DNA of 32,000 bases from Acaryochloris marina MBIC11017 (GTDB lineage: Bacteria; Cyanobacteriota; Cyanobacteriia; Thermosynechococcales; Thermosynechococcaceae), in NCBI RefSeq assembly GCF_000018105.1, contig NC_009925.1, positions 270,001-302,000 of the forward strand, in the 5' to 3' direction. The notes below the pieces were generated by a model that did not search any database, was not told the origin of the DNA, and was given only the letters and a program-made list of their open reading frames with translations. Position numbers and translations under genes: made by a program. The stretch's first letter is position 1; every line of letters starts with the position of its first letter. Below, piece by piece: positions 18,736-31,416 of this stretch.

Positions 18736-19254
18736 ATGACCGTTATCCAACCTATTCTCCAAAACACCGTGGTCGTCTTTTCTAAGGCCTACTTGCCGTT
18801 GGCCCGGATCAATATCAAGCGGGCCATTGTGCTTCTGATCACGGGTCAAGCGGAATCTCTCGATTTTGGCAATACCCAGGTATGGGAAGTGCGATCGCCC
18901 AATCAAGTCTTGCGGGTATCAGAGCATATCCGCTTGTTGATGGGCAACCCAGAGCGGATGTGGAAAATACCTCCCGTTAACCGCCGCGAGGTCCTCAAAC
19001 GCGATCAGCACCGCTGCCAATACTGCGGTAGCCATCGCCGACTGACGTTGGATCACGTGATTCCCCGATCAAAAGGGGGATTGCACACTTGGGATAACGT
19101 GGTTGCTGCCTGTGAGCCTTGTAATTCCACCAAAAGCGACCGAACGCCCACCCAAGCAGGGATGACGTTACAGTCCAAACCCAAGGCACCGATCCATCCG
19201 GCTGTGGCCTTTGCCGACCAGTTTTGGAAAAGCCAAGAAAACCTAACCCATTAA
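18736..19254 (+). CDS. HNH endonuclease
   Basis: RDQHRCQYCGSHRRLTLDHVIPRSKGGLHTWDNVVAACEPCNSTKSDRTP is the HNH/zinc-finger core. A GAGGAG RBS lies upstream. Confidence 0.88.
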   Translation: MTVIQPILQNTVVVFSKAYLPLARINIKRAIVLLITGQAESLDFGNTQVWEVRSPNQVLRVSEHIRLLMGNPERMWKIPPVNRREVLKRDQHRCQYCGSHRRLTLDHVIPRSKGGLHTWDNVVAACEPCNSTKSDRTPTQAGMTLQSKPKAPIHPAVAFADQFWKSQENLTH

Positions 19255-19312
19255 GGGCTGGGCCGTCCCAGTTCTCCGACTTTAACTCAGAAATTTTTGG
19301 AGACAGTCCACC

Positions 19313-19696
19313 ATGCTGAAACTGATCTATACCGAATTGGGACTGCATATGGAATATGTAGGGGATTCCCTAGAAACCGTTGTGTCTCAACATGTTGTGC
19401 TTACCGTTCGTACTAGCCAAACCCTCCATTTAGAACTGGGGCAGGCCTCATTCTTACTCCCAGTGTTGACCCCTGGCTTAGGGGCTTTAGAAACGGCACT
19501 TCGCCAATATGACCAAACCCTAGAAATCACTCGTGTGGATGCGGAATATGTCGAAGTTTGCCTCGCTGGGACCTGGATAGCCCAAACGGCCCAAGCCCAT
19601 GAGGGGATGTTCTTAGCCGCCTATGACTATGAGACTGAGTTAATTCTTCGTCGTCTCTGGCAAGCTTCTGATCAGGCCCTAACCTCTGTTGTTTAG
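19313..19696 (+). CDS. Hypothetical protein (127 aa)
   Basis: Clean ORF with an ATG start and composition like the flanking genes. I recognise no motif. Confidence 0.55.
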   Translation: MLKLIYTELGLHMEYVGDSLETVVSQHVVLTVRTSQTLHLELGQASFLLPVLTPGLGALETALRQYDQTLEITRVDAEYVEVCLAGTWIAQTAQAHEGMFLAAYDYETELILRRLWQASDQALTSVV

Positions 19697-20888: not shown

Positions 20889-20953
20889 AGTTGAAACGAG
20901 CTTCTACAGCCAATCAACTTCTGAACCTTGAAAACTGAATATTTGCCACATTT

Positions 20954-21028
20954 GGGGGTGTAGCTCAGTCGGTCTAGAGCAGTCGCCTGTCGAGCGAAAG
21001 GTCGCGGGTTCAAATCCCGTCTCCCCCG
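20954..21028 (+). tRNA. tRNA-Asp(GTC)
   Basis: Acceptor GGGGGTG/CTCCCCC with a T-T mismatch at 6-67. D arm GCTC-AGTCGGTCTA-GAGC. Anticodon loop CTGTCGA. T arm GCGGG-TTCAAAT-CCCGT. Discriminator G. No encoded CCA. Confidence 0.85.
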
Positions 21029-21031
21029 TAT

Positions 21032-21105
21032 AGTCTCGTGGACGATTAGATAAGTCGCTTTGGTTCTCAGTCAAGGAGAAGCGGGTGCAACTCCCGTCGA
21101 GACTT
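21032..21105 (+). tRNA. tRNA-Glu(CTC)-like, atypical
   Basis: Perfect acceptor AGTCTCG/CGAGACT. 3-bp D stem GAC/GTC with a D loop lacking GG. Anticodon stem TTTGG/TCAAG and loop TTCTCAG. T arm GCGGG-TGCAACT-CCCGT has G at position 55. Confidence 0.6.
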
Positions 21106-21113
21106 CTTTACCT

Positions 21114-21186
21114 GTCCAGGTCGCCAAGGGGTCGAAGGCGTCGGTCTGCAAAATCGATATCGTGGGTTCAACTCCCACCCTGGACT
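21114..21186 (+). tRNA. tRNA-Cys(GCA)
   Basis: Acceptor GTCCAGG/CCTGGAC. D stem GCC(A)/(A)GGC with the A13-A22 mismatch typical of tRNA-Cys. Anticodon loop CTGCAAA. T arm GTGGG-TTCAACT-CCCAC. Discriminator T (the Cys identity base). Confidence 0.9.
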
Positions 21187-21195
21187 CCAACCCTT

Positions 21196-21266
21196 GCGGG
21201 GATGGTGTAATGGCAACACCTCAGTCTCCAAAGCTGATGTTCTGGGTTCAAATCCTAGTCTCCGCG
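21196..21266 (+). tRNA. tRNA-Trp(CCA)
   Basis: Acceptor GCGGGGA/TCTCCGC. D arm GTGT-AATGGCA-ACAC. Anticodon arm TCAGT-CTCCAAA-GCTGA. T arm CTGGG-TTCAAAT-CCTAG. Discriminator G. Confidence 0.9.
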
Positions 21267-21299
21267 TTTCCTGAATCCAACGGTTCAGGCAAATACCAA

Positions 21300-21373
21300 A
21301 GTGGTGTACGCAAATGGTTTAAGCGACTTGATTTTCAACCAAGTGATTGCGGGTTCAAATCCCGTCACCACTC
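21300..21373 (+). tRNA. tRNA-Glu(TTC), atypical
   Basis: Perfect acceptor AGTGGTG/CACCACT. 3-bp D stem CGC/GCG. Anticodon stem CTTG(A)/(C)CAAG and loop TTTTCAA. T arm GCGGG-TTCAAAT-CCCGT. Discriminator C. Confidence 0.65.
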
Positions 21374-21381
21374 CCAAACAT

Positions 21382-21466
21382 AGGTCGGCTCGCCTACTGG
21401 CGTGGGCAACTGCCTGTAAAGCAGCCGCTTAATGCGTTGCAGGTTCAATTCCTGCCCGGCCTACCA
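21382..21466 (+). tRNA. tRNA-Tyr(GTA), class II, CCA encoded
   Basis: Acceptor AGGTCGG/CCGGCCT. Anticodon loop CTGTAAA. Variable arm CGC-TTAAT-GCG. T arm GCAGG-TTCAATT-CCTGC. Discriminator A, then CCA (21464-66). The acceptor-to-D junction is irregular. Confidence 0.75.
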
Positions 21467-21519
21467 ATCTGTATTACAAGTTGGCAGTTTGTAGTATTTA
21501 TCACTCAGCAATAGCTTTT

Positions 21520-21605
21520 GGAGAGGTGGCTGAGTGGGGAAAAGCGCTCCCCTGCTAAGGGAGTACGGTTTCTGACCGTTGCAGGTTCAAATCCTGTCCT
21601 CTCCG
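21520..21605 (+). tRNA. tRNA-Ser(GCT), class II
   Basis: Acceptor GGAGAGG/CCTCTCC. Anticodon arm CTCCC-CTGCTAA-GGGAG. Variable arm ACGGT-TTCTG-ACCGT. T arm GCAGG-TTCAAAT-CCTGT. Discriminator G. Confidence 0.9.
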
Positions 21606-21609
21606 TTTT

Positions 21610-21683
21610 GAGAACGTGGTGTAACTGGATAACATCTCAGGCTACGAACTTGAAGATTGAGGGTTCAAGTCCTTCCGTTCTCG
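21610..21683 (+). tRNA. tRNA-Arg(ACG)
   Basis: Acceptor GAGAACG/CGTTCTC. D arm GTGT-AACTGGATA-ACAT. Anticodon arm TCAGG-CTACGAA-CTTGA. T arm GAGGG-TTCAAGT-CCTTC. Confidence 0.9.
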
Positions 21684-21710
21684 CTTTAGACAACCTATAG
21701 GTTGTCTTAT

Positions 21711-21783
21711 CCCCCGGTAGCTCAGAGGTAGTAGCGCTTGTCTGAAGAGCAAGAGGTCGCCAGCTCAAAACTGGTTCGGGGGG
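21711..21783 (+). tRNA. tRNA-Phe(GAA), atypical
   Basis: Acceptor CCCCCGG/TCGGGGG (C1-G72). D arm GCTC-AGAGGTAG-TAGC with a C-T mismatch. Anticodon arm CTTGT-CTGAAGA-GCAAG. T arm GCCAG-CTCAAAA-CTGGT has a non-canonical T loop. Discriminator G. Confidence 0.7.
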
Positions 21784-21789
21784 CTTTGT

Positions 21790-21862
21790 TGCCCTGTAGC
21801 TCAGTGGTAGTAGCGGTCGCCTGTTAAGCGAACGGTCGCAGGTTCAATCCCTGCCGGGGCAG
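21790..21862 (+). tRNA. tRNA-Asn(GTT)
   Basis: Acceptor TGCCCTG/CGGGGCA. The anticodon arm GTCGC-CTGTTAA-GCGAA has the same stem as the Asp gene at 20954. T arm GCAGG-TTCAATC-CCTGC. Discriminator G. Confidence 0.85.
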
Positions 21863-21871
21863 CCAATTCTT

Positions 21872-21943
21872 TGCCGAGTGGACGAATAGCAAGTCGCCTG
21901 ACTCTGAATCAGGAGGTTGTAGGTGCGAATCCTACCTCGGCAT
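21872..21943 (+). tRNA. tRNA-Gln(CTG), atypical
   Basis: Acceptor TGCCGAG/CTCGGCA (U1-A72). D arm GAC-GAATAGCAA-GTC without GG, a paralogue of 21032. Anticodon arm CCTGA-CTCTGAA-TCAGG. T arm GTAGG-TGCGAAT-CCTAC has G55. Confidence 0.65.
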
Positions 21944-21954
21944 CTGTCTGACCT

Positions 21955-22026
21955 TGTCCTGTGGTGTAACTGGCAACATTTCGCTCTTTGAAAGCGAAGT
22001 CCTAGGTTCGAATCCTGGCGGGACAG
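21955..22026 (+). tRNA. tRNA-Gln(TTG)
   Basis: Acceptor TGTCCTG/CGGGACA (U1-A72). D arm GTGT-AACTGGCA-ACAT. Anticodon arm TCGCT-CTTTGAA-AGCGA. T arm CTAGG-TTCGAAT-CCTGG. Discriminator G. Confidence 0.9.
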
Positions 22027-22082
22027 TTGGAGGCCGTTGAAACAAAACCTATCGCCTGGGTCTATTCACGCCTCCTTTTCCT

Positions 22083-22156
22083 ACTCCTGTGGCGCAATTG
22101 GCAGACGCAACTGTCTTAAACACAGTTTGTTGTGGGTTCGACTCCCACCAGGAGTA
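22083..22156 (+). tRNA. tRNA-Leu(TAA) lacking the long variable arm (class-I-like)
   Basis: Acceptor ACTCCTG/CAGGAGT. Leu-type D arm TG-GCG-CAATTGGCAGA-CGC. Anticodon arm ACTGT-CTTAAAC-ACAGT. The variable loop is only TTGTT. T arm GTGGG-TTCGACT-CCCAC. Discriminator A. No intron. Confidence 0.7.
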
Positions 22157-22237
22157 TAGGAGTTTAGAGTTCAGAATTGAGGTACTTCCTAAAGAGGAGC
22201 TTCACTGACAGAGTTACATCTTGAAAGTCGCTTTTTT

Positions 22238-22311
22238 ACTCCTGTAGCCCAATGGGAAGAGGCGCTGGTTTCAAACTCCAGAGGTTGTGGGTTCGACTCC
22301 CACCAGGAGTA
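22238..22311 (+). tRNA. tRNA-Leu(CAA) lacking the long variable arm
   Basis: Same acceptor and T arm as 22083. D arm GCC-CAATGGGAAGA-GGC. Anticodon stem CTGG(T)/(T)CCAG and loop TTCAAAC. 5-nt variable loop. Discriminator A. Confidence 0.65.
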
Positions 22312-22348
22312 CTGGATTCAACTAAAAAAACTCCGAACTCTTTTATTC

Positions 22349-22422
<74 letters not shown>

Positions 22423-22426
22423 TTGT

Positions 22427-22504
22427 GCTCCCGTGGCGAAATTGGCAAACGCCTCTGTTTGAGAGACAGAGTTTTTACAGGTTCAACTCCTGTCGGGAGT
22501 ACCA
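22427..22504 (+). tRNA. tRNA-Leu(GAG) lacking the long variable arm, CCA encoded
   Basis: Acceptor GCTCCCG/CGGGAGT. Leu-type D arm TG-GCG-AAATTGGCAAA-CGC. Anticodon arm TCTGT-TTGAGAG-ACAGA. 6-nt variable loop. T arm ACAGG-TTCAACT-CCTGT. Discriminator A, then CCA (22502-04). Confidence 0.7.
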
Positions 22505-22509
22505 GGTAT

Positions 22510-22583
22510 CCGGGTGTAGCGCAGTTTGGTAGCGCGCCTGGTTTGGGACCAGGATGTCGCAGGTTCAAATCCTGCCACTCGGA
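22510..22583 (+). tRNA. tRNA-Pro(TGG)
   Basis: Acceptor CCGGGTG/CACTCGG (C1-G72). D arm GCGC-AGTTTGGTA-GCGC. Anticodon arm CCTGG-TTTGGGA-CCAGG (G37). T arm GCAGG-TTCAAAT-CCTGC. Discriminator A. Confidence 0.92.
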
Positions 22584-22589
22584 CTGAGC

Positions 22590-22636
22590 CCCTAACTGAT
22601 CGTGGAGGGGCCTTCCTCTCCATCGATCAGTTAGGG
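22590..22636. terminator. Very stable 21-bp hairpin closing the 17-tRNA array
   Basis: CCCTAACTGATCG (22590-602) pairs with CGATCAGTTAGGG (22624-36). The inner stem is TGGAGGGG/CCTCTCCA with loop CCTT. No U-tract on either strand. Confidence 0.55.
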
Positions 22637-22637
22637 A

Positions 22638-22898
22638 CTAAAAATAACTGTTAGCTTTTGATTTTTCTTGGATCTGCCATCGAAAGCACGGTTTCCCTTC
22701 TTCTCCAGGTTCGGGATATTCATAAATTTGAGTCAAGAAAAAACAAGAGCCAATAGCTCTTAAATGGGCCGGAATAATTTGAGTTGGGATCTCTAGCTGC
22801 CTACGAAACTGAAGAGACTTCAGGCGTGTAAAACTTCCATTTAGATGAAAGTCAATACGTACAGGTTCAGTATCCACAAGTACTTTTCTTTTCACCAT
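22638..22898 (-). CDS. Hypothetical small protein (86 aa), weak call
   Basis: Only an ORF of moderate length between tRNA groups, with no motif. It is one of only two ORFs in the island on the minus strand, the other being 27926-28171. Confidence 0.25.
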   Translation of the reverse strand: MVKRKVLVDTEPVRIDFHLNGSFTRLKSLQFRRQLEIPTQIIPAHLRAIGSCFFLTQIYEYPEPGEEGKPCFRWQIQEKSKANSYF

Positions 22899-23006
22899 TT
22901 AATAAGATGTTCCTGATGACTCAAAGCCTTCAATTCGATTATATCTATCGGAAAAAGAAAAATATTGAAGTTCAATATTTCTAAATGCAAGGTTGGTAAA
23001 ATTTAT

Positions 23007-23102
23007 GGGCCGTTGGCAGAGCGGATATGCAGCCGCCTTTTAAGCGGATAGATCTAGGTAGCTCCTTCGGAGCCGCTTCGCGTACATCCCCTAGGCGGCC
23101 CA
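23007..23102 (+). tRNA. tRNA-Lys(TTT)-like with a 31-nt expanded T loop
   Basis: Acceptor GGGCCGT/GCGGCCC. D arm GCA-GAGCGGATA-TGC. Anticodon arm GCCGC-CTTTTAA-GCGGA. The T stem CTAGG/CCTAG encloses TA-[GCTCC TTC GGAGC]-[CGC TTC GCG]-TACATCC instead of a 7-nt loop. Discriminator A. Confidence 0.5.
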
Positions 23103-23108
23103 CTTCTC

Positions 23109-23181
23109 GGGTTGTTAGCTCAGTTGGTAGAGCAGCCGCCTCTTAAGCGGAAGCGCGTAGGTTCGAAGCCTACACAGCCCA
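23109..23181 (+). tRNA. tRNA-Lys(CTT)
   Basis: Acceptor GGGTTGT/ACAGCCC. D arm GCTC-AGTTGGTA-GAGC. The anticodon arm GCCGC-CTCTTAA-GCGGA has the same stem as 23007. T arm GTAGG-TTCGAAG-CCTAC. Discriminator A. Confidence 0.9.
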
Positions 23182-23485
23182 TCATCCCCATCGAGATGAG
23201 TATTCCTGATTGCTGATATTTCATTGAGACTATGTGTAAAAGGAGATATAAGATGACTAAATTAATTTTGAGAATTCAAGAGGTGGACATAAGCTTGGAA
23301 CCCACACATCAGGATTCCGTCACAGGAAAATGCCAGAAATAAGGATTTTCGCTTTCCAATTTATGGCTGCATATAGCAACTGATTTCAGCTTGTCCAATA
23401 TTTTACTGATACGGGCAATACTTCTAATAAGGCTTCAATCATCTGATCCTCTATCCGTTAATTCATATTTCTCTGATCCATATCT

Positions 23486-24106
23486 ATGAAGATCAAAACA
23501 ATTTCCATCTTGGCATTGCTGATGATTGGAATGACGGTTAATATGCCGAGCATCGCCCAGTATTCTAGAACAAGATATGGTGTGGACGTTGAACTATATA
23601 CCTTCGTTGATTCTTATAATCCAAGGCAAAATCAAGAATCTGGTGATATCGAAATAAAAATCACGAATAAAACAGATAAGAAAATCGAGTTGCCAAGCCA
23701 ATATGATGGTTCTGCTATTAGCTTATTTGCTCTTCAAGAGACTGAAGACCCCCGAGCTAGAGTAATGGATCAACATCTAATCGTAAGGAATGCTACCAGC
23801 CGCCCGAAAAAAAAGTTTTTGTCTCCAGGGGAAACCTACTCATATGGCAAGCTGCCTTTAAACAGGATATTCGATAAAGAAATAATCGGAAGTGAAGGGA
23901 AGTACTATTGGAACTGGCTTTTACATGCTCCGCCAAAGGCAACACCCATCTATGACAATAAATGGGAGTTTGAGGCAGATAAATTGGTTGATACAGTCGT
24001 TCTTTGGGCAGAAGTCAAGATTGGCGATCAAATTACACGATCTACCCCGAAAATCATCAGTATTCAGAATCAAGAGTTCAATGAACCTGAAGTAGAAGCT
24101 GATTAA
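23486..24106 (+). CDS. Secreted/exported hypothetical protein, AT-rich gene
   Basis: Signal-peptide-like N-terminus MKIKTISILALLMIGMTVNMPSIAQ. No other motif. Its composition differs from the core genes. Confidence 0.55.
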   Translation: MKIKTISILALLMIGMTVNMPSIAQYSRTRYGVDVELYTFVDSYNPRQNQESGDIEIKITNKTDKKIELPSQYDGSAISLFALQETEDPRARVMDQHLIVRNATSRPKKKFLSPGETYSYGKLPLNRIFDKEIIGSEGKYYWNWLLHAPPKATPIYDNKWEFEADKLVDTVVLWAEVKIGDQITRSTPKIISIQNQEFNEPEVEAD

Positions 24107-24349
24107 TAGACTATTTCCTTTTGCTCCTAGAAAAACCCATAAATATCATAATCTTCCTGGTTATTTCGACACCTTCTGCTGTCAATTTTTACTTAAAGAG
24201 ACTGAAATTTTTATCTAGTTCAGGATAGTTTTTTTATCAAATCGTGGATTTAGGATAGTTCAAATCTACGTATTTTATATTCCTCACCGGAGTGAATATA
24301 TCGTTACTTCCAAGTTTTCGTTCATATTGCAAGTCAAAGGAGGTGTGAA

Positions 24350-25651
24350 ATGACTGTCATTGTGATGGAAGTGATTAAGGTTGCGCGGCATCCCAATGCT
24401 GACTCGCTTAATGTGTACGAGATGCAAGTACCTGGCCACCCTTCTGTGCAGGTGATAGGAAATTTGGAGCGGATTTATGGGGTTGGTGAACATGTCCTGG
24501 TTGCCCAGGTCAATTCTGTTCTCAAAGACGGCACCAAAATCAAAGCAACCAAATTGCGTGGCATCATCTCCTACGGGATGGCACTGGAGAAAACGGAATT
24601 ACCGGTTGGTGAAGATGTATCTCAAACCTATTGCCAGCAGTCCGTTGTGCAGTCGGTACAAATGCAGCGATGGCCCAGTGTGGAACTCCTGCATAATGTT
24701 CGTCGGAGTTTAATGGCCCTGGAAGCCACTCCAATGGTAACCTATCGAGCAAAAATCAAACTGGATGGAACCAATGCCGGGGTGCAAATCTTCTCAGATG
24801 GCCGCGTGGCAGCCCAAAGCCGTTCCCAAATCATCACACCTGATGATGACAATATGGGATTTGCCCAATGGGTCAGTCAACAGATGGATTACTTTGCTCC
24901 GTTGGCGGGTCACGAACACATCACAATCTTTGGAGAATGGTGTGGTCGGGGGATTCAGAAGCGGACTTCTATTTCCAAAATCGATCGCAGAATCTTTACG
25001 GTGTTTGCGGTCCAGTATGGCGGAGTAGAAAATGAAGTCGCCAAGCTGGAAATCGATCCAGATAAGATATCCCAGCTACTCCCATCTCACCCGGACATTT
25101 TTGTCCTGCCGTTTATGGGAGAGCCATTGACCTTGGATTTTGGCAACCGAGACCAATTGGAATCCGTCGCCAATGCCATCAACCAGCTCGTCTCCGAAGT
25201 TGAGCAAATTGACCCTTGGGTTAAAGCCACTTTCGGGATTGAAGGGTTGGGAGAAGGGTTGGTTCTCTATCCCCAAACCCAAACTCGAGTTGATCGACTG
25301 ACATACCCTGAGCTGATGTTTAAGGCGAAAGGCGAAAAGCATCAGGTAGTCAAAACCAAACAGCCCGTGCAGCTAGACCCTGAATTCGTTAAGAGTATTG
25401 ATGAATTTGTAGCGTTGATGGTAACTCCTGCTCGACTGGAGCAAGGGTTATCTGAGAGCTGCCAGGGGCCATTGGAGATGAAGCAGTTGGGGGGCTTCCT
25501 GAAGTGGCTAGCTCAGGATGTGCAAAAAGAAAGCGAAGCTGAATTAGAAGCAGCCAAACTTTCTTGGAAGGATGTCAATAAAGCGGTTACCCATTCTGGG
25601 AAGTCTTGGTTTCGCGATCGCATCCTCTCCCTCACTGACATTGCGCAGTAA
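24350..25651 (+). CDS. tRNA-binding (CsaA/Trbp111/EMAPII-type OB) domain fused to an ATP-dependent RNA ligase nucleotidyltransferase domain
   Basis: AGGAGG RBS. The N-terminus VIKVARHPNADSLNVYEM......VIGN.....G..VLVAQV.S......KI.ATKLRGIISYGMAL matches the tRNA-binding OB fold. It is followed by ligase motif I KIKLDGTNAG, a motif-III-like IFGEWCGRGIQ, and a motif-V-like LMFKAKGEKH. Confidence 0.75.
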   Translation: MTVIVMEVIKVARHPNADSLNVYEMQVPGHPSVQVIGNLERIYGVGEHVLVAQVNSVLKDGTKIKATKLRGIISYGMALEKTELPVGEDVSQTYCQQSVVQSVQMQRWPSVELLHNVRRSLMALEATPMVTYRAKIKLDGTNAGVQIFSDGRVAAQSRSQIITPDDDNMGFAQWVSQQMDYFAPLAGHEHITIFGEWCGRGIQKRTSISKIDRRIFTVFAVQYGGVENEVAKLEIDPDKISQLLPSHPDIFVLPFMGEPLTLDFGNRDQLESVANAINQLVSEVEQIDPWVKATFGIEGLGEGLVLYPQTQTRVDRLTYPELMFKAKGEKHQVVKTKQPVQLDPEFVKSIDEFVALMVTPARLEQGLSESCQGPLEMKQLGGFLKWLAQDVQKESEAELEAAKLSWKDVNKAVTHSGKSWFRDRILSLTDIAQ

Positions 25652-25654
25652 ATG

Positions 25655-25697
25655 GGTGGTCACTGTTCGCTTCTGTGGGAGTTTAACAGTGGCCACC
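25655..25697 (+). promoter_or_regulatory. 13-bp hairpin just after the ligase stop codon
   Basis: GGTGGTCACTGTT (25655-67) pairs with AACAGTGGCCACC (25685-97) with one G-U pair and a 17-nt loop. No U-tract, so it may be a processing or stability element rather than a terminator. Confidence 0.45.
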
Positions 25698-25716
25698 GCC
25701 CAACCTCGATTGCCTG

Positions 25717-26184
25717 GTGAACACCAGCTCAGAATTGCTTGCGAGTCAAAATGGAAGTCTTATGGTCAAATCCAGTACGAGTTCAATCGCCCAAGAATTT
25801 TGTGATTGCACGCTACCTAAATCAGCGTGGACTCATAAAGCTCACCTACGGGTCGGACTCTGGCATCTGATGAGCTACTCTCCACCAACGGCGTTGAATC
25901 TAATGCGGGAGCGAATTCAAAGGTACAACATTGTCTGCGGTGTAGTGAATTCTGAGACATCGGGCTATCACGAAACCATCACACAGTTTTATCTGAAAGT
26001 GATTGTTTACTTCCTTGAACAGCACGATGTTTCCCAATCTATCGACCAACTGGCTGAGTCTTTGATACAGGCTTGGGGCAATCGCAATCTCCCCTTGAGT
26101 TACTACTCCAAGGATCGGTTGATGTCGAAGGAGGCCAGGCAACATTGGGTGGAGCCAGATTTGGCTCGAATGCCTGGAGCATAA
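25717..26184 (+). CDS. Hypothetical protein (155 aa)
   Basis: GTG start at 25717, with an alternative in-frame ATG at 25762. Contains WTHKAHLRVGLWHL....AL..MRERIQRYN......SGYHETITQFY. I cannot name the family. Confidence 0.5.
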   Translation: MNTSSELLASQNGSLMVKSSTSSIAQEFCDCTLPKSAWTHKAHLRVGLWHLMSYSPPTALNLMRERIQRYNIVCGVVNSETSGYHETITQFYLKVIVYFLEQHDVSQSIDQLAESLIQAWGNRNLPLSYYSKDRLMSKEARQHWVEPDLARMPGA

Positions 26185-26191
26185 GTTCAGA

Positions 26192-26221
26192 GGTGATGAG
26201 TTGCGATCGCAACTCATCACC
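26192..26221. promoter_or_regulatory. Perfect 30-nt palindrome centred on a HIP1 site
   Basis: GGTGATGAGTTGCGATCGCAACTCATCACC, lying 8 nt after the stop codon of 25717-26184. Confidence 0.6.
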
Positions 26222-26285
26222 CATACCCTGAAACAACTCCAAAATTTGCAACCACTCAAGAACAATGCAGTATCCCAACCCTCAT

Positions 26286-26362
26286 AGCGGAGATGGAGCA
26301 AGAGGGGCTCGGCAGTTTCATACGCTGCACATCCGTGAGTGCAACTCTCACCTCCGCTACCA
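26286..26362 (+). tRNA. tRNA with anticodon CAT (elongator Met or Ile2), atypical, CCA encoded
   Basis: Acceptor AGCGGAG/CTCCGCT. D arm GAGC-AAGAGGG-GCTC with a 3-nt 8-9 linker. Anticodon arm GCAGT-TTCATAC-GCTGC. T arm GTGAG-TGCAACT-CTCAC has G55. Discriminator A, then CCA (26360-62). It lacks the three G-C pairs of initiator anticodon stems. Confidence 0.65.
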
Positions 26363-26370
26363 AATCTTGA

Positions 26371-26443
26371 GCTGGTGTAGCTCAATGGCCAGAGCAATTG
26401 TCCTGTAAACAATAGGCTGCAGGTTCGACTCCTGTCACCAGCT
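26371..26443 (+). tRNA. tRNA-Thr(TGT), C at position 33
   Basis: Acceptor GCTGGTG/CACCAGC. D arm GCTC-AATGGCCA-GAGC. Anticodon arm ATTGT-CCTGTAA-ACAAT. T arm GCAGG-TTCGACT-CCTGT. Discriminator T. Confidence 0.75.
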
Positions 26444-26508
26444 TGTCCCATTATTTAGGTACAGAACGATGATTCTTCTCACTAGGCGATTCCGAAAGGA
26501 GCGAATCC

Positions 26509-27024
26509 ATGGATACCCGAACCGAAATAGTCCAAACTGATATCACAACCCTAAAGGTAGATGCAATCGTCAATGCGGCGAATGAGTCCTTACTCGGCGG
26601 GGGTGGCGTCGACGGAGCGATTCATCGTACAGCCGGCCCCCAACTCCTAGCAGAATGCCGAACCCTTAAAGGCTGTAAAACGGGCCATGCCAAACTCACA
26701 AAAGGATATCAACTTCCAGCTAAGTATGTCATTCACACTGTTGGTCCGATTTGGCGAGGCGGGGGAGCCAATGAAGCGATTTTATTGCAAGCCTGCTATC
26801 AACGCAGTTTAGCGTTAGCCGTTGACAATGGGATTCAAACCATAGCCTTTCCTGCCATTAGTTGCGGAGTCTATGGATATCCGATAGATCAAGCCTGTCA
26901 AATCGCCTTTGAAACGACCCTCAATTTCTTGCAGATGAATCAATCCATAACCCAGGTTATCTTTGCCTGCTTTGGCGACTTGATTTATCACACCTACCTA
27001 AAAATAGGGGAGCAGGTGAATTAA
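26509..27024 (+). CDS. Macro domain protein (YmdB/O-acetyl-ADP-ribose deacetylase-like)
   Basis: [69 protein letters not shown]...E..LL..CY..SL.LA...[17 protein letters not shown] is the canonical macro-domain signature. Confidence 0.92.
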
Positions 27025-27072
27025 TAGGTGCAAAATTAGTAAGGTCCACAAAACTTAGGTGCATAAAACCTA

Positions 27073-27168
27073 ACGGATATAAACTCTTGCTGATATGGTG
27101 TGCCAGCATGAGAGGCTTCCAACCTCTTGATGCGAAGAGACGCTTTGCGAACAAATCTCGTTATCCGC
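27073..27168 (+). pseudogene. Degenerate tRNA-like element carrying the same hairpin-2 plus tail module as the expanded-T-loop tRNAs
   Basis: Stem CGGATA (27074-79) / TATCCG (27162-67). D-like hairpin GCTG-ATATGGTGTGC-CAGC. Hairpin AGAGG-CTTCCAA-CCTCT is a Gly UCC-like anticodon arm. CGC-TTT-GCG followed by AACAAATCT (27141-58) matches CGC-TAT-GCG CACAAATCT of 27570-87. I could not fold a complete cloverleaf. Confidence 0.3.
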
Positions 27169-27173
27169 TTTGG

Positions 27174-27244
27174 GCGAGTGTGATGTAGCAGTAGCATCTG
27201 GCGGTGCCAACGCCAGCGCGTGAGTGCGAATCTCACCACTCGCT
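27174..27244 (+). tRNA. tRNA-Gly(GCC), atypical
   Basis: Perfect acceptor GCGAGTG/CACTCGC. D arm ATGT-AGCAGTA-GCAT with no GG. Anticodon arm TGGCG-GTGCCAA-CGCCA. T arm GTGAG-TGCGAAT-CTCAC has G55. Discriminator T. Confidence 0.75.
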
Positions 27245-27248
27245 TTGT

Positions 27249-27322
27249 GGTCCTGTAACTCAGCCTGGGAGAGTGCCTTTCTTACAAAAAGGTGGCCGTA
27301 GGTTCGAATCCTACCGGGACCA
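27249..27322 (+). tRNA. tRNA-Val(TAC)
   Basis: Acceptor GGTCCTG/CGGGACC. D arm ACTC-AGCCTGGGA-GAGT. Anticodon arm CCTTT-CTTACAA-AAAGG. T arm GTAGG-TTCGAAT-CCTAC. Discriminator A. Confidence 0.92.
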
Positions 27323-27327
27323 TCAGT

Positions 27328-27417
27328 GGGGGATAGCTCTGGTGAGCGGCTTCGCCTTATAAGCGAGGGGACCAGATTAGTCTAGACGGCTGGGATCATA
27401 ACCCAGATCCCCTACCA
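27328..27417 (+). tRNA. tRNA-like, anticodon TAT (Ile), 21-nt variable region, aberrant D and T loops, CCA encoded
   Basis: Acceptor GGGGGAT/ATCCCCT. D arm GCTC-TGGT-GAGC has a 4-nt loop. Anticodon arm CTTCGC-CTTATAA-GCGAGG. The variable region is 21 nt. T arm CTGGG-ATCATAA-CCCAG. Discriminator A, then CCA (27415-17). Confidence 0.45.
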
Positions 27418-27422
27418 AACCT

Positions 27423-27498
27423 GGGAGTGTCGCCTAAGGGATGGGGCACCGATCTTCTAAATCGGTCTGTGTAGGTTCGAATCCTACCACTCCTGCCA
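27423..27498 (+). tRNA. tRNA-Arg(TCT), CCA encoded
   Basis: Acceptor GGGAGTG/CACTCCT. D arm GCCT-AAGGGATG-GGGC. Anticodon arm CCGAT-CTTCTAA-ATCGG. T arm GTAGG-TTCGAAT-CCTAC. Discriminator G, then CCA (27496-98). Confidence 0.9.
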
Positions 27499-27501
27499 AA
27501 T

Positions 27502-27598
27502 GAGTCTGTAGCTTAATTAGAAAGCATCAGCCTTGCAAGCAGAAAGATGTCAGTATCTCCTATCGGAGACGCTATGCGCACAAATCTGAACAGAATCA
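27502..27598 (+). tRNA. tRNA-Ala(TGC)-like with a 32-nt expanded T loop
   Basis: Acceptor GAGTCTG/CAGAATC with G3-A70 instead of G3-U70. D arm GCTT-AATTAGA-AAGC. Anticodon stem TCAGC/GCAGA has one A-A mismatch and loop CTTGCAA. The T stem (G)TCAG/CTGA(A) encloses TA-[TCTCC TATC GGAGA]-[CGC TAT GCG]-CACAAAT. Discriminator A. Confidence 0.5.
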
Positions 27599-27603
27599 AC
27601 TAT

Positions 27604-27678
27604 GTTGGCCGAATCCAAAGCGGACGAGGAGCTAGATTGTGATCCTAGTGTTAGCGGGTTCAAGTCCCGTCGGCCACC
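27604..27678 (+). tRNA. tRNA-His(GTG) with encoded G-1
   Basis: G-1 (27604) is opposite C73 (27678). Acceptor TTGGCCG/CGGCCAC has a U1-C72 mismatch. Anticodon stem CTAG(A)/(C)CTAG and loop TTGTGAT. T arm GCGGG-TTCAAGT-CCCGT. Confidence 0.85.
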
Positions 27679-27696
27679 CCAATTCACACCTTATGG

Positions 27697-27779
27697 AAGG
27701 TGCCGCCGAATGGTCGGCAACTGGTCTTGAAAATCAGGGTACGGTTCGCTGTAGGGGTTCGATTCCTCCACCTTCCTTT
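27697..27779 (+). tRNA. tRNA-Ser(TGA), class II
   Basis: Perfect acceptor GGAAGGT/ACCTTCC. Anticodon arm CTGGT-CTTGAAA-ATCAG. Variable arm TACGG-TTCG-CTGTA. T arm (A)GGGG-TTCGATT-CCTC(C). Discriminator T. Confidence 0.85.
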
Positions 27780-27925
27780 CTCTTCCCATATGGTGTTGTC
27801 GAAGAGCGGATAAAGATTAGCTCTATACCAAGAATTCCACCAGAAGGGTTCGGTCCGCTGTAGGGGTAATTCCTTAGGAAATGCTATGCGAGCGCTTAGT
27901 GAGGATTATTTTGGTCCAGCTCTAC
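27780..27925 (+). pseudogene. tRNA-derived degenerate sequence
   Basis: GGGTTCGGTCCGCTGTAGGGGTAATTCC (27846-73) copies the variable/T region GGGTACGGTTCGCTGTAGGGGTTCGATTCC of the Ser gene. GCTATGCG (27882-89) echoes hairpin 2 of the expanded T loops. No complete cloverleaf was found. Confidence 0.3.
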
Positions 27926-28171
27926 TCAATGACGGGATGTCTTAAAATTTTGCAATGCCCTAAAAGCTTTGGAAAAAAAGTGTTTTAGGAGGCTTATGAT
28001 AGGCAATTTATCCCTAGACTGACCAACTCTCAAGAACCCGTAGAATCTATGTCCGCAGGACTTACAGCGATAGGGGTGAATGTTAAAAAGTAAAAGCACC
28101 TTTTCATGGAATCCTCTAAGGCGAGAATGTATGAGATAACGGCTCTTACATCTGCGACAACTTTTAGCCAC
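27926..28171 (-). CDS. Small zinc-ribbon protein (81 aa), tentative
   Basis: Two CxxC pairs (CRRCKS ... CKSCGHRF), basic composition, no other motif. Confidence 0.35.
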   Translation of the reverse strand: MAKSCRRCKSRYLIHSRLRGFHEKVLLLFNIHPYRCKSCGHRFYGFLRVGQSRDKLPIISLLKHFFSKAFRALQNFKTSRH

Positions 28172-28890
28172 GGCTTTTACTTTGCTTCCTAGGACTGAGC
28201 TTTATCTACAGATATCCTGGCCTATTTCAATAAAAAATGTAGTGATTTTTGAGACAATCTTGCATGTTTAATCGATGATTTTTTGATTCAATCATATTGT
28301 TTAAACTCACTAATAAGTTTTATATATATAGGTCGATTTATTTTTTTAGAATTTTAAATACGGTCAGAGACCCCAGAGGTTCAGTTTCCACTGAAAATTA
28401 ATTTCTCTCTTATCGATATATATTTCGCCTTTACTAGAGGCTTAAAACCAGTTCGAATAAATAGTAAATAAGCAAAACTCGTATTAAATATTACTTCACT
28501 TGAAGCCTGAAAACTCTGTCTGGCATGGCTTACAGACACATTTAACTGCAAGGCTTCAGATCAGGAAAATTATCCGATTGAACACACTAAAACTCATGTG
28601 GATGAAGCATTCTCAAGGAAATACTCCCAGGTGAATATGCCCATTCAGAAAGGTAATATAATCACAGCTTGCAGCATATACTACAAGCATGCTACAACTA
28701 ATTTAACGCGCGTTTGCAAGGGTTAAAACGATGAGTGATAAAGGTACATCTGAAGTCATTTACTAGCAGAAAGGTTCGTATATCTGCCTCTCTGTATGCA
28801 CTAAGGGCTTCTATTTAATTAAATCCCTCCTCTCTCTAGCATTCACAAGCTTTATTAACTGAAACGTTGGCAATACCACATCTCAATAAG

Positions 28891-29504
<614 letters not shown>

Positions 29505-29511
29505 ATAACTC

Positions 29512-29688
29512 CCGTGCCCCAATCGAGAAAGCTTACACACGAATAACGGTCCTAAGGTAGCAATGTGCGAGCGATCGCACTAGCGAAGCATCCAATATCT
29601 CTCGCAGATAGAAGATGCGGGCCCACTGCCAAGGTTGATTTGGTAAGAGCGGCCGTAAGTTGATGAACTGCTTTCTAAACTTGCACGG
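29512..29688 (+). ncRNA. Y-RNA-like scaffold, copy 1 (large variable module)
   Basis: Helix 1 CCGTGC (29512-17) / GCACGG (29683-88). Conserved asymmetric loop 5' CCCAATCG and 3' AAACTT. Helix 2 AGAAAGC (29526-32) / GCTTTCT (29670-76). Conserved TTACACAC follows. Confidence 0.45.
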
Positions 29689-29712
29689 AAGTATTGTTAT
29701 TGCCCAAAACTC

Positions 29713-29840
29713 GCGTTCGCACCCTAACGAAAAAAGCATACATACTCGCCAAATGGTAAGGCACTTGATTTGTAGATCAAGCACATACAGGTTCAACTCC
29801 TGTGTATGACACAACCGCTTTCTTGACTTGTGCGAAGCGC
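29713..29840 (+). ncRNA. Y-RNA-like scaffold, copy 2, carrying a tRNA-like cloverleaf (YrlA-like architecture)
   Basis: Helix 1 GCGTTCGCAC / GTGCGAA(G)CGC. Loop 5' CCTAACG and 3' (T)GACTT. Helix 2 AAAAAAGC / GCTTTCTT. Then ATACAT. The inner module is a 5-bp acceptor-like CATAC/GTATG, D arm GCC-AAATGGTAA-GGC, stem CTTGAT-TTGTAG-ATCAAG (6-nt loop, no canonical anticodon loop), and T arm ACAGG-TTCAACT-CCTGT. A T-run follows the 3' end. Confidence 0.5.
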
Positions 29841-30735: not shown

Positions 30736-31416
30736 ATGCCCCACAAACATCACTTTAACCAGATGAAAAATCCTGAATCGGCCTTTGCCCTTCAGGAAAA
30801 ACTGCGGCACCAAGTCATCCGAGAGGACGATTTTGGTCCCCTTGAAACGGTGGCAGGAGTGGATGTTGGATTTGAGGATAAGGATCAAATTGCCTGTGCT
30901 GTAGTTGCAGTACTGAGACTATCTGATCTCAAGGTGCAGGAATCTGTGGCGATTCGTCTTCCGGTTACCTTCCCCTATGTACCGGGATTGCTAGCATTCC
31001 GAGAGGTTCCTATCGTCATGGAAGCCTTGGCAAGTCTGAAAACTCGGCCTGGACTCCTAATCTGTGATGGCAATGGCACCATCCATCCTCGTCGGTGTGG
31101 ATTTGCTTGCCATTTAGGAATTGTTAGTGGACTGCCGTCTATCGGAGTAGCCAAAACTCCTTTCATTGGGGAATTTCAACCTCTAGCCGATGATCGTGGG
31201 GCATGGCAGCCGATCACAGATGGGGGAGAGGTTATTGGGGCAGCCCTGCGGACACAAACAAAGGTTAAACCTATCTTTGTGTCCATTGGCCATCGCATTA
31301 GTTTGCAAAGTGCTATTGATTTGGTGCTCCAATGCGCTCCCGCATATCGTTTACCTGAAACCACTCGCCAAGCCGATCAGTTATCCAAGGGCAATGCCCA
31401 ACCTGTCATCTTATAA
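30736..31416 (+). CDS. nfi: Endonuclease V (inosine-specific endonuclease)
   Basis: VAGVDVGFED......AVVAVL.......E.......TFPYVPGLLAFREVP....AL..L...P.LLICDGNG..HPRRCGFACHLG.....PSIGVAK is the EndoV signature, including the catalytic D in GVDV and the PYIPG-like loop. Confidence 0.9.
   Translation: MPHKHHFNQMKNPESAFALQEKLRHQVIREDDFGPLETVAGVDVGFEDKDQIACAVVAVLRLSDLKVQESVAIRLPVTFPYVPGLLAFREVPIVMEALASLKTRPGLLICDGNGTIHPRRCGFACHLGIVSGLPSIGVAKTPFIGEFQPLADDRGAWQPITDGGEVIGAALRTQTKVKPIFVSIGHRISLQSAIDLVLQCAPAYRLPETTRQADQLSKGNAQPVIL

Follow-up and report, generated by a model that had tools for sequence, protein, structure and literature searches.

A small two-hairpin repeat, probably mobile, interrupts the T loops of tRNA genes in the long tRNA array of Acaryochloris marina

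The small dispersed repeats (SDRs) SDR4-6 of Nostoc, credited to Elhai and colleagues (2008), are reportedly hairpin-forming sequences of 21-27 nt that can be nested and that are present or absent at orthologous sites. Non-canonical tRNA introns of archaea and red algae lie in D and T loops, transpose between tRNA genes and are cut by EndA at a bulge-helix-bulge (BHB). Very small mobile repeats exist in Nostoc and have been reported as confined to Nostocaceae (PMC5861425), and repetitive extragenic palindromic (REP) elements carry a conserved 5' GT[AG]G tetranucleotide (PMC6006769). The cyanobacterial long tRNA array (L-array) has been described for Anabaena 7120, with A. marina MBIC11017 listed among the carriers, and L-arrays, which pass horizontally between genomes, supply supernumerary tRNAs and are switched on by translational stress (PMC8421152; PMC4758250); array insertions, duplications, deletions and pseudogenes have been reported, and T-loop inserts are not among them (PMC8421152). 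The present analysis concerns a family of short two-hairpin inserts in the T loops of array tRNA genes, as encountered in a 32,000-nt stretch of chromosomal DNA of Acaryochloris marina (the window), the tRNA island of which is an L-array with 25 co-oriented tRNA genes called by ARAGORN at 20953-29812. Dozens of cyanobacterial loci, fetched through the RNA ligase that the array encodes, share its gene order, which runs Asp, Glu, Cys, [Met], Trp, Glu, Tyr, Ser, Arg, Phe, Asn, Gln and onward. Within the array the genes for Lys(UUU) and Ala(UGC) carry extra sequence in the T loop, and the explanation favoured here, at a probability of roughly 0.7, is that these extra 24-26 nt are copies of a dispersed, very small two-hairpin mobile repeat (19-26 nt) that has invaded the tRNA genes of arrays. 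T-loop inserts in bacteria are unmentioned in the searchable literature on tRNA arrays and tRNA gene structure and, as far as that literature can be searched, are undescribed as a phenomenon in bacterial tRNA genes.

The tRNA-Lys(UUU) gene (23007-23102, forward strand) was recognised from a cloverleaf drawn by hand, from its orthologues and by ARAGORN after excision of the insert; as it stands it falls below the Rfam tRNA threshold, with a partial match of 13.5 bits. Its T stem (23054-23058 with 23090-23094) holds 31 nt in place of the normal 7, reading UA GCUCC-UUC-GGAGC CGC-UUC-GCG UA CAUCC, of which 23060-23084, from the first A to the second UA, is an A-type mini-insert with hairpin 1 at 23061-23073 and hairpin 2 at 23074-23082. 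Alignment with uninterrupted orthologues places this insert as a 25-nt block in place of U55 (net +24 nt) within an otherwise colinear tRNA. It scores 55.2 bits against CM R1, a covariance model that covers the T arm together with the insert, and the orthologues in L002, L003, L206 and L207, which belong to the comparison arrays (L-numbered loci), are normal at 73-75 nt. The tRNA-Ala(UGC) gene (27502-27598, forward strand), with normal 73-nt orthologues after Arg(UCU) in L206 and L207, passes the Rfam tRNA model (RF00005) at 32.1 bits against a gathering threshold of 29, with a T-loop insertion of 31 nt. Its T stem (27549-27553 with 27586-27590) holds 32 nt where 7 are normal, reading UA UCUCC-UAUC-GGAGA CGC-UAU-GCG CA CAAAU, and the A-type mini-insert (27555-27580, forward strand, from the first A to the CA after hairpin 2; net +25 nt) comprises hairpin 1 at 27556-27569 and hairpin 2 at 27570-27578 and scores 60.7 bits against CM R1. 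Dispersed copies outside tRNAs, CTCCTATCGGAGACGCTACGCGAA, almost match the core of the Ala insert, and the L204 orthologue of this gene holds a different insert variant. ARAGORN called neither the Lys(UUU) nor the Ala(UGC) gene in the window, and called both, Lys(UUU) at 73 nt, once the insert had been excised in silico.

A third copy lies in a decayed tRNA-Gly(UCC) pseudogene (27089-27169, forward strand), identified by comparison with an intact insert-bearing gene of the sister strain (L209 8673-8767) and with normal 72-nt genes in L206 and L207. Relative to the sister strain, the pseudogene has an acceptor mismatch, a D-arm deletion and no 5' half of hairpin 1. What is left reads in full GAGA CGC-UUU-GCG AA CAAAU (27137-27156); the truncated insert remnant, up to the AA, spans 27137-27151 on the forward strand and was recognised by pattern match, by alignment to L209 and by a weak covariance-model score of 20.9 bits, with C56 following at 27152. 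The window contains three occurrences of the core common to the inserts, GAGNCGCNNNGCGNACA, where 0.03 would be expected. An earlier note on this DNA had reported T loops of 31-32 nt with two hairpins each in Lys(UUU) and Ala(UGC), and this is borne out by reading of the sequence, as is its statement that these are the sole Ala and Lys(UUU) genes of the island, no others having been found there. Three of its details require amendment. The cloverleaf, described as complete in both genes, is readable in Lys and imperfect in Ala, with G3.A70 and a G49.A65 mismatch at the T-stem base; the degenerate third copy is indeed present, with the 5' end of its host at GCTGATA at 27089 rather than at 27073, as judged from the intact sister-strain orthologue; and the T loop had been said to be replaced, when the orthologue alignments have the insert replacing or following U55 and the supposed tail consisting of N-A and then the ordinary C56 R57 A58 N59 N60.

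A covariance-model search of other genomes, such as the earlier note had proposed, recovered homologous insertions. Together with the other scans and with loci added later, the count is about 42 T-loop inserts, spread over 23 arrays and at least 17 isoacceptors. About 750 array tRNAs are uninterrupted, so that about 5% of array tRNA genes have been invaded. All lie between nt 54/55 and C56 and all are in the sense orientation. CM R1, a strict two-hairpin grammar and a sequence-blind scan for expanded T loops all reach one family; the grammar gave 34 matches in 1.25 Mb against 1-3 in shuffles, and the sequence-blind scan for any enlarged T loop recovered no family besides the two-hairpin inserts. 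A permissive cloverleaf scan did not discriminate (2947 hits against about 3000 in shuffles), and a 14-base pattern scan of viral contigs gave chance matches in coding DNA only. Insert-bearing arrays occur in Acaryochloris, Oscillatoriales (Microcoleus, Tychonema, Microseira), Oculatellaceae, Spirulina-like and Nostocales genomes, and the hosts include Met, Asn, Leu (three anticodons), Gly (two), Arg, Ala (two), Lys, Gln, Cys, Trp, Pro, Val, Glu, His and Ile-like genes. The net insert length in T loops is 19-26 nt; the A. marina genes carry inserts of 24-26 nt. The variants form a continuum, with hairpin 1 found as NCUCC/GGAGN, UUCCC/GGGAA, UUUCC/GGAAA, CCC/GGG, CUC/GAG, CCGC/GCGG, CUGC/GCAG or CCGU/ACGG and hairpin 2 as CGC/GCG, GGC/GCC, a GCAAGC block or GNCGC/GCGUC. 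Covariation of the outer pair of hairpin 1, previously read from two copies, is upheld by 13 A-type copies, in which compensatory double changes occur at four of the five pairs, 97% of cells are paired and none of 500 shuffles reaches the observed value (for the MAFFT alignment of A-type loops, copies with a 3-nt hairpin-1 loop were given an N placeholder there). The hairpins are of modest thermodynamic stability (mean z -0.86 over 26 copies).

Within this family, inserts come and go between close relatives. Lys(UUU), Ala(UGC) and Gly(UCC) are normal in Acaryochloris thomasi and a syntenic metagenome-assembled genome (L206, L207), where inserts are found instead in Gln, Pro and Cys. The sister strain L209, with a ligase 97% identical, has an identical Lys insert, its tRNA body differing by two neutral substitutions, and its Gly(UCC) gene is intact and holds a full-length insert; its Val(UAC) and Glu(UUC) genes are interrupted and those of the window are normal. 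Every other case with a close insert-free relative likewise reveals a discrete block in an otherwise colinear tRNA. Insert-bearing Arg(UCU) alleles are each most similar to different insert-free alleles, a C-type insert is identical in Arg, Met and Ile-like genes and a B-type insert in Ala(UGC) and Ala(GGC), a chimeric insert is found in Gly(GCC), and in a Met gene (L203) one copy is nested within the hairpin-1 loop of another.

Copies are also found outside T loops. A metagenome pattern search returned five loci, comprising two T-loop copies, one antisense copy in a tRNA-Phe anticodon loop and two non-tRNA copies. The antisense copy (L203) lies between nt 34 and 35 with the junction TT^CAA, and is also present in Nostoc sp. 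MS1. One of the two non-tRNA copies (L202) interrupts the conserved NPVEDIW motif in an IS630-type transposase gene by exactly 24 in-frame nt, again at TT^CAA on the element strand and with no target duplication. BLAST against PLSDB matched 46 plasmid records for the A-type and 48 for the C-type, nearly all from Nostocales or Chroococcidiopsis and including N. punctiforme PCC 73102 and PCC 7120; these plasmid copies are mostly at non-tRNA sites, mostly intergenic with some inside annotated coding sequences, and TT^C(A/G) flanks were seen at the A-type plasmid copies inspected. The earlier note had taken conservation across isoacceptors as evidence of a selected T-loop RNA module. That conclusion is not supported, given the dispersal of the same 24-nt sequence in protein genes, intergenic DNA and an antisense anticodon loop, the normal Lys, Ala and Gly orthologues in relatives and the additional Val and Glu inserts of the sister strain. 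The Lys, Ala and Gly copies are alike through descent from one mobile repeat family and not through conservation of a T-loop RNA device. Judged by sequence comparison, the inserts behave as mobile DNA, and the hairpin covariation, while real, is a property of the repeat family.

Several further copies of the repeat depart from the common arrangement. One tRNA (L003 7579-7693) has a T-loop insert together with a second sense element (UGCC-UCC-GGCA CGC-UGC-GCG AA) in its anticodon loop, and the same array holds at least six element copies in about 2.4 kb (L003 5322-7679). At L204 195-221 (minus strand), a tRNA-His with a sense T-loop insert also has a related two-hairpin element in antisense, GCCCC-AAA-GGGGC GGC-TTC-GCC AA, between its acceptor and D stems. 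Outside tRNAs, the C-type element GTACCACTTCGTGGAAGCAAGCTACG adjoins another recurring sequence, CGCAGCGTCTCGTAGAGAAG, on plasmids of Nostoc punctiforme, Trichormus variabilis and Nostoc ATCC 53789 (L221-L223), which suggests clusters of different mini-repeats.

In the explanation favoured here, the repeats would insert at TT^C(A/G) without target duplication, and since each T loop encodes a TT^CR target, long tRNA arrays would constitute dense target fields in which about 5% of genes have been struck. The T-loop DNA, GG-TTCRA-NN-CC, holds this target on the sense strand, and the all-sense orientation of the inserts is expected because T-loop TTCR targets are nearly all sense: antisense targets are 6.5% of T-loop targets, giving P=0.06 for 0 of 42, and orientation was accordingly ruled out as a sign of RNA-level selection. 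Target duplication of TA, considered for the types that read TA...TA, was rejected, as the orthologous empty sites read TTC; P-nucleotide-like palindromic repair scars were ruled out on inspection, and MazF (ACA) cleavage at the 3' junction is speculative and fails for CGA-type loops. The A. marina Lys(UUU) and Ala(UGC) genes would then be insertion alleles of ordinary array tRNA genes, and Gly(UCC) an older insertion allele that has since decayed. The hairpins may be a recognition feature for the mobilising enzyme, probably acting on single-stranded DNA, and the insert would be transcribed and kept in the tRNA, protruding from the tip of the elbow. The resulting tRNA would be poorly functional and dispensable, tolerated as array tRNAs are supernumerary, and such genes would drift to pseudogenes. 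Separately, about 5% of otherwise normal array tRNAs (L001-L080 and related loci) have G55 for U55, with T loops reading TGCAA or TGCGA, as in L002 Met; such loops are without the TT^C target and might be insertion-resistant alleles or scars.

That the insert is retained in the RNA and leaves the tRNA largely non-functional is the most likely fate, to judge from the state of the genes themselves. Besides the wrecked Gly(UCC) gene of the window, further decayed insert-bearing remnants are present in the sister strain, an Ala(GGC) gene (L017) has no T stem, the hairpins have decayed in the L207 Pro, L026 Trp and L002 Cys copies, and arrays tolerate loss of the sole copy of an isoacceptor.

A number of observations weigh against insertion of a mobile repeat into dispensable genes as a full account. 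No transposase candidate, Y1/HUH types included, was found among the window open reading frames in Pfam, PHROGs and NCBIfam scans, and Acaryochloris is absent among the plasmid matches listed (40 rows, ten organism names). T loops contain 39% of array TTCR sites but 42 of the 45 array insertions (P ~3e-14), a count somewhat inflated by copies inherited by descent, and the 4-nt motif alone thus does not explain the T-loop location. T-loop copies also differ from the dispersed 24-mer in having an extra A/U-N (one or two residues) on the 5' side, and about 80% of them have A55, compared with U55 in 94.5% and A55 in <1% of normal array tRNAs; neither the extra 5' residues nor A55 are explained by simple insertion. 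After in-silico excision ARAGORN finds a normal tRNA of 71-79 nt at 29 of 31 sites, so that a normal cloverleaf persists in hosts in a way that fits functional hosts too, and T-stem integrity of the hosts is not clearly worse than that of normal array tRNAs. Possible sources of the T-loop excess are an extended target, a preference for hairpin-loop targets, copying from T loop to T loop, or better tolerance of T-loop insertions; the four well-defined non-T-loop sites can all be drawn within a loop.

These same features (the extra A/U-N, A55 and the 42 of 45 array insertions) could instead mark the T-loop copies as a T-loop-adapted lineage, the RNA of which is either excised and resealed by the array ligases or kept as a nuclease-escaping elbow extension, a proposal regarded as unlikely. 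Functional expansion of the elbow in its own right, with the insert staying in the mature tRNA and being selected there, is distinctly improbable. Such an expansion might bind a protein or hide back-up tRNAs from elbow-recognising factors such as T-loop nucleases, and would fit the placement of the insert at the outermost tip of the elbow, the retention of U54, C56, R57 and A58 as in orthologues, the kept host cloverleaves, the strong T-loop excess over other TTCR sites, the linkage of arrays to toxin and RNA-repair genes (MazF/PemK, PIN, RtcB, Rnl) and the preservation of Lys(UUU) with its insert between two strains with structure-neutral substitutions only. It is difficult to reconcile, however, with the same sequences at non-tRNA sites and in antisense, with the sporadic occurrence of inserts even between sister strains, with the decay of some hairpins (L207 Pro, L026 Trp, L002 Cys) and of some hosts (Gly(UCC) of the window and the L209 remnants), and with the experimentally functional Anabaena 7120 array, which is without inserts; from established ribosome structures, a 25-nt addition to the elbow should also clash with ribosomal elbow contacts.

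Excision of the insert as an intron-like element, cut out at 55/56 with the halves rejoined by the array RNA ligase (Rnl) or RtcB and the host remaining functional, is very doubtful. Its attraction lies in the embedding in arrays of RNA ligase genes with a tRNA_bind domain, a family which, from work on Trbp111, is said to bind the tRNA elbow. The ligase of the window, which the earlier note had correctly placed 1.2 kb from the Lys gene as an RNA ligase with a tRNA-binding domain (24350-25651, forward strand; Pfam RNA_ligase 2.6e-12 and an N-terminal tRNA_bind domain of the Trbp111/PheRS-beta type, 5.2e-9), is 100% identical to an A. marina NCBI protein and has >1200 homologues, mostly cyanobacterial, and PDB matches to its tRNA_bind (OB) domain are to PheRS-beta and Trbp-like chains only. 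RtcB adjoins related arrays, excision of exactly 25 nt from copies that keep U55 restores UUCAAGU or UUCAAAU, the hosts are intact, and archaea provide a precedent for mobile T-loop introns. Nonetheless, inspection of the junctions revealed no BHB or other known splice motif, and scans of the window no endonuclease candidate; excision would leave A55 in about 80% of copies as against the near-universal U55; antisense and protein-gene copies could not be spliced in this way; the ligase occurs equally in arrays that lack inserts and at loci with no tRNA genes; and hosts and hairpins are decayed in several cases. The earlier suggestion of an intron removed and resealed by this ligase has therefore gained no positive evidence, given a ligase present independently of inserts, the lack of a BHB and of a splicing endonuclease in these scans, and the A55 left behind. 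The ligase, RtcB, MazF/PemK and PIN genes occur whether or not inserts do, and tRNA repair and toxin functions, as suggested for Anabaena (PMC8421152), offer a simpler reading of them. Per-tRNA northern and charging data exist for a single array, that of Anabaena 7120, which has no inserts and so gives no test of insert fate. Chance similarity or random decay, with these regions as the spacer between tRNA fragments that the earlier note had named as a possible refutation, is refuted despite the unexceptional folding energies of single loops, as the core occurs three times against 0.03 expected, dozens of homologues sit at the same tRNA position, base pairs covary and orthologue alignments delimit a discrete block in a colinear tRNA, and its probability is negligible.

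Insertion of a mobile repeat, as favoured here, has consequences for annotation and for experiment. Through these inserts tRNA finders overlook about one in 20 genes in cyanobacterial tRNA arrays, and gaps in such arrays should be read as interrupted tRNA genes rather than spacers. The repeat is a tractable, very small mobile DNA of 24 nt, with a defined TT^CR target, no target duplication and dozens of dated insertions with which to hunt for the enzyme. The arrays also provide a natural experiment on the tRNA elbow, in the form of 42 independent or inherited insertions at nt 55/56 in intact-looking hosts. If any insert-bearing tRNA were charged, or repaired to normal size, this would be new tRNA biology; if none is, the inserts measure the dispensability of array tRNAs. 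Excision and resealing, if true, would constitute the first protein-dependent tRNA intron in bacteria, and a retained elbow extension, if true, would let back-up tRNAs escape elbow-directed nucleases during translational stress.

The surroundings of the array contain further features of note. A phage origin of the island was ruled out, as no phage record matches, the neighbours, PriA and histidine kinases, are chromosomal and the ligase is that of A. marina. In surroundings that are otherwise chromosomal, the open reading frame at 87-1343 encodes a tail-sheath domain of the contractile kind (PHROG 'tail sheath', 4.6e-50) and may come from a prophage remnant or belong to a contractile injection system. 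At the 5' edge of the array (18736-19696) are an HNH endonuclease gene and an alr0857-family gene, as also in L206, L207, L209 and Anabaena 7120; the HNH domain is closest to those of IscB and Cas9, and the pair might have a part in the dynamics of the array or of the element. A Macro-domain protein is encoded within the array (26509-27024) and endonuclease V just past it (30736-31416), both being enzymes tied to RNA processing or repair by-products. In related Acaryochloris arrays, RtcB and a toxin-antitoxin pair (MazE/PemK or PIN) follow the array (L206 13959-15929, L207 12195-14292), which fits a link of the array to tRNA cleavage and repair. Among the array tRNA genes themselves, all four tRNA-Leu genes (22082-22504) are 74-78 nt long and without the long variable arm that defines bacterial tRNA-Leu, as in related arrays. 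A tRNA-Ile(UAU)-like gene of 90 nt (27328-27417) has the palindrome GTCTAGAC within a variable region of about 20 nt; its T loop, ATCATAA, is non-canonical, and the gene is kept in the sister strain (L209 8954-9043). Two genes not called by ARAGORN are a tRNA-His(GUG) (27605-27678; Rfam 32.3 bits), the anticodon stem of which has an A.C mismatch, and an 82-nt Ser/Sec-like gene (27695-27776) that scores 39.1 bits against the tRNA-Sec model, for which the threshold is 47. A tRNA-like gene at 29739-29812 has, according to ARAGORN, a 4-base anticodon 'tgta' in an 8-nt anticodon loop (Rfam tRNA 38.3 bits).

Compared with known systems, the array of the window resembles the described L-array (PMC8421152) in gene order, in the upstream HNH gene and in the embedded RNA-processing genes, and differs in its T-loop inserts, of which the tested Anabaena 7120 array has none. 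A group I intron, the known kind of intron in bacterial tRNA genes, can be set aside, since such introns have a P1-P9 ribozyme of >200 nt in the anticodon loop, as against 24-26 nt in the T loop here, where Rfam recognises only tRNA, and hammerhead or other small ribozymes were ruled out on inspection. The inserts share with the archaeal introns their shortness, their non-canonical tRNA positions including the T loop, and the occurrence of related inserts in non-orthologous tRNAs with the host cloverleaves kept. In contrast to those introns they are bacterial, occur also outside tRNAs and in antisense, and are without a bulge-helix-bulge (two 3-nt bulges, 4 bp apart), the junctions of U54-A/U55 with hairpin 1 and of N-A with C56 having at most 2 bp across them (54:A and 55:N, the second in 7 of 13 copies); nor is an EndA-like protein encoded in the window. 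With REP elements and their transposases (REP/RAYT, TnpA-REP) and the palindrome-associated transposable elements (PATEs) of the IS200/IS605 group, the inserts have in common that they are short non-coding hairpin repeats with no target duplication and a short specific motif (TT^CAA in IS630 and Phe, TT^CR at the inspected plasmid copies), and a single-stranded DNA hairpin logic like theirs would suit the hairpins as well as targets that lie in loops. They differ in starting with CTCC, TA-CCGC or TA-CCC rather than the 5' GT[AG]G of REP elements and in being much shorter than the two-ended PATEs; no Y1/HUH transposase was found among the window open reading frames.

Of the known kinds, the inserts come nearest, by description, to the small dispersed repeats of Nostoc. 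They differ in being found also in Acaryochloris, Oscillatoriales, Oculatellaceae and Chroococcidiopsis, when SDRs are reported as confined to Nostocaceae (PMC5861425), and in the systematic occupation of nt 55/56 of T loops in tRNA arrays, which does not feature in the searchable literature. Like SDRs, the inserts are short (24 nt in the IS630-type gene, 19-26 nt in T loops) and non-coding, are dispersed on cyanobacterial replicons in both intergenic DNA and genes, and have orthologous empty sites and nested copies; their A-type and C-type sequences turn up in N. punctiforme and PCC 7120 as well as on many Nostocales plasmids.

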